NCBI GenBank assembly: GCA_045578445.1
Contig: JAZNKG010000040.1
Coordinates: 3,922-67,921 of the forward strand
Length of the DNA: 64,000 nt
Reading direction: 5' to 3'
Origin: Alphaproteobacteria bacterium
GTDB taxonomy: Bacteria; Pseudomonadota; Alphaproteobacteria; RF32; CAG-239
A program made the translations under genes and the position numbers. Below the pieces are notes generated by a model. That model saw only the letters and a list, made by a program, of their open reading frames with translations, was not told where the DNA came from and did not search any database. Numbering within the stretch: position 1 is the stretch's first letter; the number at the start of each line of letters is the position of its first letter. This document shows positions 7,337 to 64,000 of this stretch, one piece after another.

Positions 7337-7371
7337 TTCAAACTCTATTTCTTGCAATTAATTTAAGTTAA

Positions 7372-7679
7372 AAAGAGCCGTTCTGTTGCTAGGTGGCTCA
7401 CTCCCCACTTTATGCTAACCATAGCTTAAAGAATTTAGATTTGTTGCTTTAACTTAAGCAGCTACAGCAACTGGTGCAAAATTATCATTTGCGTTTATTT
7501 AATTTGAACCGATAACGGTGGTATCTCACCGAATACAGCACAGATATCTTTACTATACACTGTCTAACCTATTTCGCCCCCATAAAATTTTTGGTGGAGG
7601 CGCTGGGTACTGCCCCCAGGTCCAACATATCTATTCCATACGGCTTTTCGTATCAGAGTTTTGCGAGAATCGTAAAACT
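7372..7679 (-). ncRNA. ssrA: Two-piece (circularly permuted) tmRNA
   Basis: Acceptor piece ends GGGGGCAGTACCCAGCGCCTCCACCA (CCA end at 7592); 10-nt intervening segment; coding piece starts GGGGGCG at 7581, giving a G3-U70 stem. Tag ANDNFAPVAVAA* at 7492-7454. Outer ends are approximate. Confidence 0.95.
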
Positions 7680-7685
7680 TCTAAA

Positions 7686-7714
7686 ATTATAGTGTCAAAA
7701 AAAATTATTTTCAA
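7686..7714 (-). promoter_or_regulatory. Sigma70-type promoter of ssrA
   Basis: TTGAAA-N17-TATAAT on the minus strand just upstream of the acceptor piece. Confidence 0.65.
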
Positions 7715-7820
7715 GATATATTGTTTATTATATTTTGAACATATAGAAATTTTTTTAATATTTTATTTAACAATATGGTATATGTTTTTTGTATCTAATA
7801 TTATTTTTAGGAATAATGCA

Positions 7821-49731: not shown

Positions 49732-50289
49732 ATGAACAAAGAAGATAATAAAGTTGAAGATGAAATTGTTGAAGAACAAGAAGTGGTAGAAAATGCTGAT
49801 GAAACAACAGAAGAAGTTGTTGAAGAAGTAACTGCAGAAGATGAAACTTCTAAACTTCAAAATGATTATAATAAGCTAAAAGATGATTATATCCGCCTTT
49901 ATGCAGAAATGGATAATATGAAAAAACGTTCTCAGCTTGAAACAGAAAAGACAATTAAATTTGCTATTTCTTCATTCGCAAAAGAGCTTTTGGGTGTGGC
50001 TGATAATTTAGAACGCGCAATTACTGCTATGGAGAATAATAAAGAATCTTGCGAAGACCTCTTAAAAGGTGTTGAACTTACTCAAAATGAATTAACTAAA
50101 GTTTTTGAAAAATTCGGTATTAAGCGCTTTAATCATATGGGGCAAAAGTTTGACCCTAATTTTGAACGTGTAGTTCAAGAAATTGAAGATAAGAAAAAAG
50201 AACCTGGAACTATTATCGCAGAACTGCAGGCAGGGTATGTGATACATGACAGAATACTTCGTGAAGCTATGGTTATAGTTGCGCGCTAA
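49732..50289 (+). CDS. grpE: Nucleotide exchange factor GrpE
   Basis: R..AE.DN.KKR, FAKELL.VADNLERA, FDPN, Q.GY....R.LR.AMV.VA. Confidence 0.96.
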   Translation: MNKEDNKVEDEIVEEQEVVENADETTEEVVEEVTAEDETSKLQNDYNKLKDDYIRLYAEMDNMKKRSQLETEKTIKFAISSFAKELLGVADNLERAITAMENNKESCEDLLKGVELTQNELTKVFEKFGIKRFNHMGQKFDPNFERVVQEIEDKKKEPGTIIAELQAGYVIHDRILREAMVIVAR

Positions 50290-50687
50290 AGCACAGTCAA
50301 ATTGCTGAATGGAAGCCCCTCGTCGTCGCGTCATGTACCTTTATGTACACTTGTGCTCCTAGGGGGACATTCAGCAATAGCACTGCACTTTATCGCACAA
50401 CTTCAAGCATAACTAGAGTTATTGTTTTGTAAATTTTGCTTTAAGGCAGGACATCTGAGGCTATAAACATAAAATTTTTCCTATTTAGAGTGTGGTGAGA
50501 GTGAAGTAATTAGCGTATGGAAGTCTGTTCTTTGGGGCTTTGTCTAGCAGGCATCATGATTGTGGTTTTAAAGTCTCATGTACGCTTTTTATGTACACAT
50601 CAACTTTAAAACCACTTCCAGCATACCTACTATCCAAAGCCTTTGCTTGTTTATTTATATGGGGCGTTTGTCTACCGGCATCATGAT
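50266..50687. repeat. Cluster A of GTAC-loop-GTAC palindromic elements
   Basis: Hairpins at 50266-50413 and 50536-50641; 50438-50477 matches 61745-61784 at 38 of 40 nt; partial arm duplicate at 50661-50687. Confidence 0.8.
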
Positions 50688-50819
50688 GATTTATTTATAT
50701 AGGATTGTTTCACAAAATTTACCGCGTGTTTTGATAAAAAAACTTATTTGGGGGAGGGATTCTGCTTTAAATTTAAAATTTTTATGCTATAAACGTGCCA
50801 TATTTAAGGAGTTTATAAT

Positions 50820-60012: not shown

Positions 60013-61434
60013 ATGCCAATTAATACGCATACAAAAATATTAGCAACATTAGGCCCTGCATCAAATAGCGAAAGTAAAATTAGCGAGTTAATAGATGCAG
60101 GTGTTGATGGTTTTAGATTGAACTTTAGCCATGGCACACATGATGAACATGAGAAGATGTTTAAGAACATCAGAAAGGTAGCTAAAAAGAAAAATGCTCA
60201 TATTGCGATTGTGGCAGATTTACAAGGTCCAAAGTTGAGAATCGGTAAATTCAAAGAAGAAAAAGTAGAATTAAAAGTTGGGCAAGACTTTGTTCTTGAT
60301 ATGAAAAAAGATTTAGGTGATAACTCTCGCGTTACCCTTCCTCATAAAGAAATTTTTGAAGCATTAAAAATTGGAGATAAGCTTTTAGTAAACGACGGTA
60401 ATATTGTGCTTAAAGTTGTTAAAAATGGTAAGAATTATGCCGATACTGTTGTTGAAGTAGGGGGTGTTGTTTCTAGTAACAAAGGTGTAAATTTGCCTAA
60501 TTCATCACTAAATATTTCTGCACTGACAAAGAAAGATTTAGATGATTTAAATTTTGCTCTTAAACTAGGTATAGATTGTGTTTGTTTATCCTTTGTGCAA
60601 AAACTTGCAGACGTAAAAGAAGCTCGTAAAATCATCGGCGATAAAGCATGGATTATTTCTAAGCTAGAAAAACCTCAAGCCATTGATGATGTAGATAATA
60701 TTATTAAGGCTTCTGATATGATAATGGTTGCTCGCGGTGATTTGGGTGTTGAATGTCCAGTTGAGACAGTGCCAGTTTTACAAAAGCATATTGTAGAAAG
60801 ATGTCGTCAACATGGTAAGCCTGTTATTGTAGCAACGCAAATGCTAGAATCGATGATTTCTTCTCCAATGCCAACTCGTGCAGAAGTGTCAGACGTAGCT
60901 AATGCAGTATATGACGGTGTTGATGTGGTTATGCTTTCTGCAGAAACTGCTGCAGGTAAATATCCTGTTGAGACAGTTAAAAAAATGCATGCCGTAATTG
61001 AACAAGTAGAAAATGGTCCAATGTATGTAGAAAACGTAAATCGTTTTTGTGCTGGTTCTCAATATAACAATGTTACTTGCGCTATTACTTATGCAGCAGG
61101 TCGTGTTGTTCGTACCTTAGATAAAGTAGGATGTTTAACTACATTTTCTGTTAGTGGCAAAACAACTCTTTCAATGGCTCAAGAGCGTCCATTATTGCCA
61201 ATTCTTGCCATTACTCACAATCTAGAAACAGCTCGCAGATTGAATCTTGTTTGGGGTGTGCGCACCTTTATTGATAAAAAAGTGTTTGGCAACTTTGATA
61301 ATATGGAGACAGTTGCTCGTGGTTTTGCTCGTATATCTGGTGCGGCAAGTGAAGGCGAGTATATTGTAGTTACCGCAGGCTATCCGTTCGGAAAGGTGGG
61401 GTCTACTAATGTGTTGCACATTATTAAAGTCTAA
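60013..61434 (+). CDS. pyk: Pyruvate kinase
   Basis: TKI.ATLGPAS, RLNFSHG, DLQGPK.R, K.EK, MVARGDLGVE, ATQMLESM, MLSAETA.G.YP. Confidence 0.97.
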   Translation: MPINTHTKILATLGPASNSESKISELIDAGVDGFRLNFSHGTHDEHEKMFKNIRKVAKKKNAHIAIVADLQGPKLRIGKFKEEKVELKVGQDFVLDMKKDLGDNSRVTLPHKEIFEALKIGDKLLVNDGNIVLKVVKNGKNYADTVVEVGGVVSSNKGVNLPNSSLNISALTKKDLDDLNFALKLGIDCVCLSFVQKLADVKEARKIIGDKAWIISKLEKPQAIDDVDNIIKASDMIMVARGDLGVECPVETVPVLQKHIVERCRQHGKPVIVATQMLESMISSPMPTRAEVSDVANAVYDGVDVVMLSAETAAGKYPVETVKKMHAVIEQVENGPMYVENVNRFCAGSQYNNVTCAITYAAGRVVRTLDKVGCLTTFSVSGKTTLSMAQERPLLPILAITHNLETARRLNLVWGVRTFIDKKVFGNFDNMETVARGFARISGAASEGEYIVVTAGYPFGKVGSTNVLHIIKV

Positions 61435-61807
61435 TTAAATGGGTAAATTTTAGCATTGAGTTAGCAAATGGAAGCCACTCTTCGTCGCGTCGTGTACGTC
61501 TATGTACACTCGTGCTCCTCGGTGGACATTTGCTACTCACTACTAAAATTTCCCTCATTTAAACACATGACGAGAGTGGGGTATTGAAAATTCATGTACT
61601 ATTTGTGTACACTAAAATTTTCATTTCCCTCAAGCCCATCTCTATCTATCTAAAATTTCCCGCATTTAAGGTGTGGCGAGAGTGTATTGGGTTAGCAAAT
61701 GGAAGCCTGTCCATAAATGCTCACGTACTTTTTATGTACGCTCCGCTTTATGGCAGGACATCTGAGGCTATAAACGTAAAATTTCCCTCATTTAAACACA
61801 TGACGAG
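61435..61807. repeat. Cluster B of GTAC-loop-GTAC palindromic elements separated by a ~31-nt direct repeat
   Basis: Three hairpin units. TAAAATTTCCCTCATTTAAACACATGACGAG is exact at 61544-61574 and 61777-61807 and degenerate at 61651-61680. Confidence 0.85.
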
Positions 61808-61967
61808 TTTGATTAATATAACTAAATTGTTTGTAAAATTTAGTTATATTTTTTGATGTAATAATCTGAAATATTTATTGTCTTTATCAATGTTTTAAAC
61901 GTGTTGTTAATTTATTTTATTATATTATAGTGCTAATTAGTAATTAATTTATGGAGTAATGTAGACT

Positions 61968-64000
61968 ATGGAAAAAGATAAAGTTATTCAGGTTACTGAA
62001 GAACAAGAAAAACAATATATTGATGCTTTGGTTAGCAAAGTTACGGCAGCTCAGAAAAAGTTTGCTGAATATAGCCAAGAACAAGTAGATTATATCTTCC
62101 GTCGTGTAGCTTTGAAATTAAGCTCACTTCGTATTCCTTTGGCTCAAATGGCTGTTGAAGAAACAGGTATGGGTATTGTTGAAGATAAAGTAATCAAAAA
62201 TCATTTCGCATCTGAATATATTTTTAATAAATTTAAAAATGTAAAAACTTGCGGAATTTTGGAAGAAGATAAAGCTAATGGCTTGATTAAAATTGCAGAG
62301 CCAATTGGTGTTATTGCTGGTGTTATCCCAACAACTAACCCAACATCAACTACAATTTTTAAATCTTTAATTGCTCTAAAAACACGTAATGCAATTATCT
62401 TTTCACCACACCCAAGAGCTAAAAAATGTACTGTTGAAACAGCTCGCATTATCTTGGAAGAAGCTGTAAAAGCTGGTGCTCCTGAAGATATTATTGCTTG
62501 GATTGATGAACCATCAATTTTAAGAACACAATTTTTGATGCAAAGTGCAGATCTTACTTTGGCAACAGGTGGTCCTGGTATGGTTAAATCAGCATATAGT
62601 TCCGGTAAGCCTGCATTAGGTGTTGGTGCTGGTAATACTCCAGCATTAATTGATGAAACTGCTGATATTGAAATGGCTGTTTCTTCAATCTTGATGTCTA
62701 AAACATTTGATAATGGTATGATTTGTGCATCTGAACAATCTGTTATTGCTGTTAAAGATGTATATGATACAGTTAAGGCAGAATTTGTTAAACGTGGTGC
62801 ATGTTTCTTAACATCTAAAGAAAAAGAAAAATTAGGCAAAGTGATTATGATAGATGGTCGCTTAAATGCTGCTATCGTTGGTCAACCTGCTTATAAAATT
62901 GCTGCAATGGCAGATGTAAAAGTTCCTGAAGATACAAAAGCTCTTATTGCTGAATGTTCTAAAGTTGGTGTTGATGAGCCTTTCTCTGCAGAGAAATTAT
63001 CTCCAGTTTTAGCAATGTATAAAGCTGATGATTTTGAAAAAGGTGCAAATCTTGCTAAAGATTTAGTTTCTTTTGGTGGTAGAGGACACACATCTGTTCT
63101 TTATACAAATCCTCAAAATGATGATAGAATTAAATATTATGGTCATTTGATGATTACGGGTCGTGTGATGATTAACTGTCCATCTTCACAAGGTGCGATT
63201 GGTGATATTTATAACTTTAGATTGGAACCATCTTTAACTCTTGGTTGTGGTTCTTGGGGTGGAAACTCAGTAAGTGAGAATGTAGGAGTAAAACATCTTA
63301 TGAATATTAAAAATGTTGCTTGTAGAAAAGAAAATATGTTGTGGTTTAAAGTTCCACCAAAAATCTATTTCAAACCTGGTTGTTTAAGTTTAGCTCTAAA
63401 AGAACTTAAAGGTAAAAAACGTGCATTTATTGTAACAGATAAACCTTTGTTTGATTTAGGCTATACTAAAAAAGTTACAGATGTATTAGATGAAATTGGT
63501 GTTCAACATAAGATTTTCTCTGATGTTCATCCAGACCCAGACTTAACTACTGTTAATATGGCTTTAGGTACACTTCGTTCTTTTGAACCAGATGTAATTA
63601 TTGCTCTTGGTGGTGGTTCTCCAATCGATGCTGGTAAAATTATGTGGTTAATGTATGAACATCCAGAATTGAAGTTTGAAGATTTGGCTATGCGCTTTAT
63701 GGATATTCGTAAACGTGTATTTGAATTCCCAAATCTTGGCGATAAAGCAATGATGGTTGCTATTCCAACAACTTCTGGTACAGGTTCTGAAGTTACACCA
63801 TTCTCTATTATTACAGATGATGCTGAAGGTGTTAAATATGCGGTAGCTGACTATGTATTTACTCCAAATATGGCAATTGTTGATGCTGATTTAGTTCAAT
63901 CTATGCCTAAAGGTTTATGTGCAGCTTCTGGTATTGACGTTTTAACTCACGCAATTGAATCTTATGTATCTTCAATGGCTACAGAATATACTCGTTCTTT
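61968..64000 (+). CDS. adhE: Bifunctional acetaldehyde-CoA/alcohol dehydrogenase; 3' end lies outside the window (absent from the ORF track)
   Basis: Manual translation from ATG 61968 (GGAG RBS) gives GIVEDKVIKNHFASE, PTTNPTST, ATGGPGMV, FDNGMICASEQ, LGCGSWGGNS, GGGSPIDAGK, PTTSGTGSEVTPF. Confidence 0.96.
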   Translation, partial: MEKDKVIQVTEEQEKQYIDALVSKVTAAQKKFAEYSQEQVDYIFRRVALKLSSLRIPLAQMAVEETGMGIVEDKVIKNHFASEYIFNKFKNVKTCGILEEDKANGLIKIAEPIGVIAGVIPTTNPTSTTIFKSLIALKTRNAIIFSPHPRAKKCTVETARIILEEAVKAGAPEDIIAWIDEPSILRTQFLMQSADLTLATGGPGMVKSAYSSGKPALGVGAGNTPALIDETADIEMAVSSILMSKTFDNGMICASEQSVIAVKDVYDTVKAEFVKRGACFLTSKEKEKLGKVIMIDGRLNAAIVGQPAYKIAAMADVKVPEDTKALIAECSKVGVDEPFSAEKLSPVLAMYKADDFEKGANLAKDLVSFGGRGHTSVLYTNPQNDDRIKYYGHLMITGRVMINCPSSQGAIGDIYNFRLEPSLTLGCGSWGGNSVSENVGVKHLMNIKNVACRKENMLWFKVPPKIYFKPGCLSLALKELKGKKRAFIVTDKPLFDLGYTKKVTDVLDEIGVQHKIFSDVHPDPDLTTVNMALGTLRSFEPDVIIALGGGSPIDAGKIMWLMYEHPELKFEDLAMRFMDIRKRVFEFPNLGDKAMMVAIPTTSGTGSEVTPFSIITDDAEGVKYAVADYVFTPNMAIVDADLVQSMPKGLCAASGIDVLTHAIESYVSSMATEYTRS

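Follow-up and report, generated by a model that had tools for sequence, protein, structure and literature searches.

A family of stop-codon hairpins with one GC-skew polarity in a genus of gut Alphaproteobacteria

A hairpin of about 129 bases, located at stop codons, forms an undescribed repeat family that is specific to one genus of Alphaproteobacteria and essentially absent elsewhere. Its two strongest features, which were absent from an earlier sequence-only reading of this DNA, are an absolute polarity relative to GC skew and a placement at stop codons that is precise to the base. We favour, as plausible if not quite probable, a REPIN/BIME-like non-autonomous element that spread via single-stranded DNA at the replication fork and was kept in 3' untranslated regions. 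The window, a stretch of 64,000 nucleotides, comes from a metagenome bin (hereafter G000) of 1.71 Mb in 60 contigs, with 32% G+C and a completeness score of 100%.

The pyk-adhE array and the anatomy of the hairpin

The array begins one base past the stop codon of the pyruvate kinase gene and ends before a terminator-like hairpin, which is kept downstream of it. To describe the copies, we used a covariance model, denoted as R1, built from 25 G000 copies. The parts of the array and of a second locus in the window, termed cluster A, are as follows.

49732-50286: grpE, by a GrpE Pfam match
50300..50378 (+): cluster A core-only copy of the main family, 11 nt past the grpE stop (R1, 70.4 bits)
60013..61434 (+): pyruvate kinase gene (pyk), an ORF with Pfam PK and PK_C matches; its TAA stop (61432-61434) lies directly before the array
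61435..61563 (+): unit 1, a full 129-nt element (R1, 137.4 bits, E 4e-27; fold; alignment)
61435-61451 (+): unit 1 left end (this and the next six lines from the alignment)
61452-61467 (+): unit 1 left variable arm
61468-61476 (+): unit 1 invariant ATGGAAGCC
61494-61507 (+): unit 1 apex
61524-61529 (+): unit 1 invariant GGACAT
61530-61544 (+): unit 1 right variable arm
61545-61562 (+): unit 1 right end
61544..61574 (+): first copy of the 31-nt direct repeat (repeat family D1), made of the right end and a 12-nt tail that closes with CGAG
61585..61669 (+): unit 2, from a sister hairpin family and truncated at its 5' side; apex 61596-61610, common right end 61652-61669
61665..61796 (+): unit 3, without the canonical left end (R1, 97.5 bits); apex 61725-61739, right end 61778-61795
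61777..61807 (+): second copy of the 31-nt direct repeat; 61807 is the last base of the array
61815..61856 (+): terminator-like hairpin with a perfect 14-bp inverted repeat (I2), an 8-nt loop and then T6 (also seen in the fold)
61968..63998 (+): downstream neighbour, an adhE-like gene that joins aldehyde dehydrogenase to iron alcohol dehydrogenase

A consensus terminator scan did not flag 61815-61856 because this A/T-rich hairpin has too few G-C pairs. A promoter-like site lies ahead of the adhE-like gene at 61904-61931, and elsewhere in the window there is an alpha-type permuted tmRNA gene at 7371-7718 (-). The stretch 61425-61860 is predicted to fold much more stably than its shuffles on either strand, with a z score of -6.4 on the + strand and -8.8 on the - strand.

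Unit 1 is built in layers. The outermost layer is an A/T-rich stem formed by the left end (17 nt) and the right end (18 nt), and inside it are variable arms, of which four or more alleles exist, every allele being matched by a complementary partner of its own. The third layer is an invariant asymmetric internal loop, ATG-GAAG-CC opposite GG-A-CAT, and the fourth is variable, pyrimidine-rich on both arms and only partly paired, leading to a tip of the form GTAC-N6-7-GTAC. Across the 25 copies the blocks ATGGA-G, GTAC and GGACAT are invariant. The right end carries a tail of ~12 nt ending in CGAG, and right end and tail together make up the 31-nt repeat.

The sequence-only reading had described three GTAC-loop-GTAC apices behind pyk, a 31-nt direct repeat with two exact copies and one degenerate copy, and a shared internal-loop motif, all of which were confirmed. 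The apices are present at 61494-61507, 61596-61610 and 61725-61739, the exact repeats (61544-61574 and 61777-61807) are accompanied by a third copy, 61% identical, at 61651-61681, and the motif ATGGAAGCC...GGACAT is invariant in 25/25 aligned genome copies. Sites of the form GTAC-N6-7-GTAC number 6 in the window against 0.84 expected, and none of 100 shuffles reached 6. The count of five units, obtained by adding cluster A, was correct only in part. Three of the five are recognised by the covariance model (61435-61563, 61665-61796 and 50300-50378), whereas unit 2 belongs to the sister family and the second cluster-A hairpin (apex 50580) to another repeat family.

Unit 2 is 81-95% identical by blastn to copies on contigs C1, C45, C51, C34 and C22, and a full copy of its family, left end included, is found at C45:2924-3051; the ends and the GTAC apex of this sister family are common with the main family. 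Allele comparison identified unit 3 as a chimera whose left and right variable arms derive from different alleles. The other repeat family in cluster A, ~155 nt and unrelated, occupies window positions 50419-50700, has its own GTAC-loop-GTAC tip (50580-50596), recurs on contigs C10, C27, C51, C2, C45, C16, C50 and C39, and shares the same 3' arrays with the main family. Furthermore, a ~170-nt repeat is nested in hairpin elements right after the tip GTAC (C44:7060-7230 and C42:11790-11960), as if the tip were an insertion target.

Covariation was analysed in 42 distinct copies out of the genomes of relatives; these copies are related to each other, the alignment was fitted to the model, and the 43-pair structure was written by hand. 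In the 22-pair core, 96.8% of cells were paired, compared with 76.5% in column shuffles and 30-44% with slid partners, and both sides change at 19 of the 22 pairs. For the 43-pair full hairpin, which includes the outer stem, the value was 91.4% against 74.4% in shuffles, with changes on both sides at 37 of the 43 pairs. The dispersed, structure-conserving hairpin family with covarying arms that had been proposed is therefore real. The complementarity of the arms could come from fold-back templated correction and not from selection, and mismatched arm alleles, that is, arm chimeras, occur in 7 of the 25 aligned G000 copies. By predicted fold energy the complementary strand is slightly the more stable one, in 44 of 65 copies with RNA parameters and in 52 of 65 with DNA parameters, and wobble pairs favour the top strand (58 versus 35), so that the model energies and the wobble pairs point opposite ways as to the strand that folds. 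A coding reading of the invariant ATG was rejected, since an in-frame TAA stands five codons into one inner allele, and since the copies differ by 1-nt indels.

Copies in the genus and their placement at stop codons

In G000 the main family gave 52 blastn matches and 51 iterated-nhmmer matches, the latter in 33 arrays on 17 contigs, and 32 of the 51 span at least 100 nt. Further copies had been expected in the genome and its relatives, and the covariance-model scan found them: R1 matches 29 of the 36 genomes of the genus (2 to 70 matches per genome), and the other 7 have no match. In a sample at the level of the order, 17/17 genomes of the genus match, compared with 7 of 123 genomes of other genera, each of these marginal (E about 1e-6), and a search of 150 other alphaproteobacterial families with R1 returned 0 matches. 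A pattern scan of public genomes found an R1 match in at least 42 loci among the 80 listed. Their titles name Alphaproteobacteria, save one 2-kb contig labelled Clostridia, and public contigs with a main-family element are titled uncultured gut Alphaproteobacteria. Rfam gave nothing at the gathering threshold in the array region and, at E up to 10, two matches of 14 bits each. Literature searches on the lineage yielded no description of such repeats, and PMC12306168 mentions neither repeats nor palindromes.

Pairwise identity among the copies has a median of 0.55, and each copy is 0.62-0.98 identical to its nearest neighbour. The copies are old and diverse, and because the best intragenomic pairs are 96-98% identical, some of the copying is recent.

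Syntenic loci in relatives present both filled and empty sites. At the 12 listed loci in which pyk is next to adhE, the array is found in G000 and in its closest relative, G012 (pyk 84% identical); nine relatives have a spacer of 177-255 nt with a plain terminator and without an array, and one has a spacer of 1136 nt containing other DNA. The pyk arrays of G012 and G000 have identical junctions, including the right one, and different units inside. In three further species (G022, G020 and G043) an R1 match abuts pyk. When elements of relatives were selected by an upstream ORF that could be matched in G000 (n=50), the G000 site was filled in 14 and empty in 36. In most of the listed filled/empty pairs the two proteins match through their final residue, with the element starting from an unchanged stop position, and at a few filled sites the last one to four codons are replaced. 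One G012/G000 pair was compared as nucleotides (~80% DNA identity): here the final sense codon and the native TAG are separated by exactly the element, the TAG is kept past the right end, and there is no clear duplication.

To describe the placement, we used a crude map of ORFs of at least 90 aa. In G000, 24 of 33 arrays start from -20 to +25 nt of a co-oriented stop codon, against 12.4% expected (p 2e-15 against random intergenic positions). In a second species, G020, a co-oriented ORF precedes 44 of 51 arrays, and in 29 of 51 the distance to its stop is no more than 25 nt. Translation of an upstream gene ends either at a TAA belonging to the element, at element positions 2-4 or 10-12, or at a native stop that precedes the element by 0-2 nt; the upstream reading frame is closed within 0-12 nt, and the elements come after the C-terminus. 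The left flanks are unrelated, TAA and TAG stops are both used, and the arrays are located upstream of the host gene's terminator. Among 15 upstream genes examined, 12 have clear Pfam families and are core genes: FeFe hydrogenase, FtsZ, Lon-like protease, M3 peptidase, Sua5, GrpE, pyruvate kinase, GT8 transferase, methyltransferase, RecA, SPOUT methyltransferase and Era-type GTPase. The proposal that the arrays stand at the 3' ends of housekeeping genes was thus borne out. The base-level precision at stops is unexplained by any known target rule.

Contigs from a metatranscriptome run match 61394-61476 and 61447-61572 exactly. As DNA carry-over is possible, these matches are a weak hint of transcription only. 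The contigs from RNA libraries cover the repeat and 41 nt of pyk and not the body of pyk, and DNA contigs break at 61453. One metatranscriptome contig joins 61570 to 61677, removing unit 2 between direct-repeat copies; the joint may reflect a variant strain, or else the route that the assembly took through the repeats. Contigs that skip units may be assembly paths, and neither transcription nor excision follows from any of these contigs.

Several of these observations bear on a reading in which the hairpins are functional RNA modules of 3' untranslated regions, giving protection against 3' exonucleases or modulating termination or ribosome release, as for REP sequences. Selection on RNA would explain the conserved structure and the placement alike. 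The copies are co-oriented with the upstream gene and precede its terminator, their placement at stops is strongly non-random, the structure is kept despite a median pairwise identity of 55%, and the same sites are occupied across species, as at pyk in G000, G012, G022, G020 and G043. The excess of top-strand wobble pairs and the weak hint from the metatranscriptome contigs are also in line with RNA modules, and PMC12306157 reports ribosome stalling at REPs that lie no more than 15 nt from a stop. However, fold predictions make the mRNA-sense strand the less stable of the two, and the mismatched arm alleles in 7 of 25 G000 copies also count against RNA modules. With the strand data below also against it, we regard this reading as rather unlikely.

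Polarity relative to replication and the search for a mobilising enzyme

In G000, the strand with ATGGAAGCC is the G-rich strand, by the sign of the local GC skew, in 51/51 matches and 33/33 arrays. All 51 arrays of G020, sampled as ~270 kb fetched around known matches, also agree with the skew sign, and hence one polarity holds in 84/84 arrays of the two genomes. The direction of replication was read from GC skew as a proxy. This skew is very strong on many G000 contigs (0.15-0.38), rplB is on the strand inferred as leading, and several strongly skewed contigs with elements have equal numbers of ORFs on both strands. As the G-rich strand of the elements would be the leading-strand sequence, it would serve as the template of the lagging strand.

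The polarity extends to the choice of genes. Elements are at the 3' ends of 23 of 711 leading-strand ORFs and 1 of 429 lagging-strand ORFs in G000 (p 2e-4), and of 27 of 150 and 0 of 76, respectively, in G020 (p 1e-5). This near-absence at lagging-strand genes is unexplained by RNA function alone. Likewise, the 10 of 84 arrays that are not after a co-oriented ORF still obey the skew rule, which also counts against RNA modules; some of these 10 may follow small uncalled genes.

The skew of G000 is bimodal. About 921 kb (54% of the assembly) has a mean |skew| of at least 0.15 and contains 50 of the 51 matches, and about 787 kb has a weak, sign-flipping skew and contains 1. A chimeric bin was considered as the cause of this confinement and rejected, as a low-skew and a high-skew region are both ~80% identical to G012.

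An absolute replication polarity could also mark a host DNA signal that acts on the template of the lagging strand, for example in priming, in restarting forks or in organising the chromosome, and that is kept by the host and is not selfish. The confinement of 50/51 matches to the strongly skewed 54% of the assembly, the absence of a transposase of any tested family and the long-lived, vertical sharing of the family within the genus all agree with a host signal. On the other hand, R1 matches nothing in 7 of the 36 genomes of the genus and between 2 and 70 copies in each of the rest, the sites differ between species, and placement at stop codons has no evident link to replication. We consider such a role highly improbable.

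The window had been said to contain no transposase, and for the families tested this is true of the window and of the whole assembly. In G000, profile searches found no PF01609 (DDE_Tnp_1), PF00665 (rve) or PF13358 (DDE_3) match, and no TnpB-type or RVT_1 match. PF00589 matched two Xer-like recombinases only, of 301 and 305 aa. PF01797 (Y1) gave 0 matches in G000, G012, G020 and G008; it occurs in 15 of the 36 genomes of the genus, unrelated to the copy number of the element. An HUH/RAYT gene flanked by the motif, which the sequence-only reading had suggested seeking, was not found: six Y1 loci of relatives are without the element, with no R1 match of E below 0.5 within 1.5 kb. DUF559 is absent from G000 and present in 4 of the 36 genomes. 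A Y2_Tnp search carries no weight, because its control was silent everywhere. There was also no autonomous copy in G000, in that no left/right end pair was more than ~130 nt apart. The assembly is a metagenome bin, and since mobile genes are often unassembled, the enzyme gene may be merely missing from it.

Multi-copy ORFs were also considered as a transposase and rejected, as the sole such family encodes repeat proteins. These proteins have 370-530 aa, with ~30-residue repeats rich in Leu, Asp and Cys and a conserved N-terminal domain. Their genes are at C40:78917-81910, C25:99089, C31:22190, C44:776 and C46:818, and several are near hairpin arrays.

The enzyme search and the polarity together bear on a reading as a DDE-type MITE, TA-duplicating and IS630/Tc1-like, as Correia and ERIC, with a distribution shaped only by purifying selection. 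The terminal inverted repeats covary and are flanked by TA, the ends T-TA-A...T-TA-A are compatible with TA duplication, and the size of the element is typical of MITEs. However, a transposase that binds two like ends should give both orientations, in contrast with the single polarity of 84/84 arrays, and G000 has neither a DDE_3, DDE_Tnp_1 or rve match nor an end pair far enough apart to bound an autonomous copy. The one filled/empty pair seen at the nucleotide level is likewise without clear duplication. We regard a DDE-type MITE as improbable.

In the REPIN/BIME-like reading that we favour, copying of the element, now or recently, would take place at the replication fork and would use a folded single strand, much like that of IS200/IS605 and REP-RAYT systems, and copying of this kind would explain the absolute polarity. 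Sense copies landing at the end of a gene would supply their own stop codons, be transcribed into the 3' untranslated region and be kept, and copies landing elsewhere would be lost. Insertion next to a right end already in place, together with recombination among copies, would make the arrays grow and shuffle; the chimeric arms would follow from this, as would the different units at the same site in the sister species. The REPIN-like character is suggested by properties of REP, BIME and REPIN sequences, namely a compensatory hairpin, a bulge, mosaic arrays, proximity to stops and persistence.

Several points go against the favoured reading. A single-strand target motif cannot explain placement at both TAA and TAG with unrelated flanks. 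Furthermore, there is no Y1, DDE, TnpB or RT match in G000, and no GTAG or CGTC tag. The opposing signals on the folding strand, and fold-back correction as another source of arm complementarity, count against it as well. We also considered an undescribed mechanism that would place a folded single strand exactly at the stops of genes co-directional with replication, which seems fairly unlikely. If true, it would imply an unrecognised enzyme, or a process of the host by which the replication fork is linked with the point where translation or transcription stops. The hairpins would then be retained across the lineage, where they would replace or supplement the gene-end signals of reduced genomes in gut Alphaproteobacteria.

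Comparison with known repeat systems

The main family resembles REP, BIME and REPIN sequences. According to PMC3116915, PMC8266576 and PMC12306157, these are extragenic hairpins in tens of copies, often near stops, arranged in mosaic arrays with linker motifs, with a compensatory hairpin, a conserved bulge and long vertical persistence in one lineage. In particular, REPIN hairpins are reported to show compensatory changes (PMC3116915), REP to be recognised as strand-specific single-stranded DNA via the conserved bulge (PMC8266576), and many E. coli REPs to be within 15-20 nt of stop codons (PMC12306157). The main family is likewise extragenic and multi-copy, with 51 intergenic matches and a compensatory hairpin. 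In contrast with REP and REPIN-RAYT systems, the consensus of 25 copies has no GTAG or CGTC tag, one 129-nt modular hairpin takes the place of two REPs of 20-40 nt, there is no RAYT in G000 and no REPtron arrangement in relatives, and the elements have a single orientation to replication and start within a few bases of the stop.

The strict orientation resembles that of IS200/IS605 elements, which insert into the lagging-strand template with an orientation bias, as described in PMC5027513; insertion of one strand into that template fits the 33/33 arrays of G000 and the 51/51 arrays of G020. The lack of an obvious target duplication is a further likeness, and recognition of a folded hairpin seems plausible. 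The main family differs in that no cognate Y1 transposase shares its ends, a single long hairpin is present and not distinct subterminal left and right hairpins, and no conserved 4-5-nt target lies beside the left end.

Correia, ERIC and RPE sequences are imperfect palindromes, 100-150 nt long, that occupy transcribed intergenic DNA and have ends compatible with TA, and the main family is also a long imperfect palindrome with such ends. Unlike them it is polar in orientation, and R1 had 0 matches in 150 other alphaproteobacterial families. RPEs occur in Alphaproteobacteria, where they are inserted in-frame within genes and translated as part of the protein, whereas the main family ends reading frames and is not translated in frame. 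The proposed link to Rickettsia RPE-1 is unsupported. The attC sites of integrons are structure-defined, sequence-diverse hairpins with conserved unpaired bases that follow gene ends in one orientation and behave in a manner dependent on the replication strand. The main family shares with them diverse hairpins defined by structure, with conserved unpaired bases, directly after gene ends and in one orientation. In contrast with attC, its flanks are syntenic core genes and not cassettes, no integron integrase was found beside the two Xer-like recombinases, and its ends do not match the usual attC core sites.

Taken together, the main family fails to qualify as REP-RAYT, an IS200/IS605 derivative, a DDE-type MITE, RPE or attC. 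REP-like repeats are among the commonest non-coding features of bacteria, and their spread and their use by the host are still debated. The main family follows unusually clean rules, with 84/84 arrays of one polarity, precision at stops, covariation and no recognisable transposase, and these rules make two matters testable, the recogniser of the hairpin and the link of insertion or retention to the replication strand and the stop codon. Such repeats break metagenome assemblies at gene ends, and they could serve as strain markers of this uncultured gut lineage.
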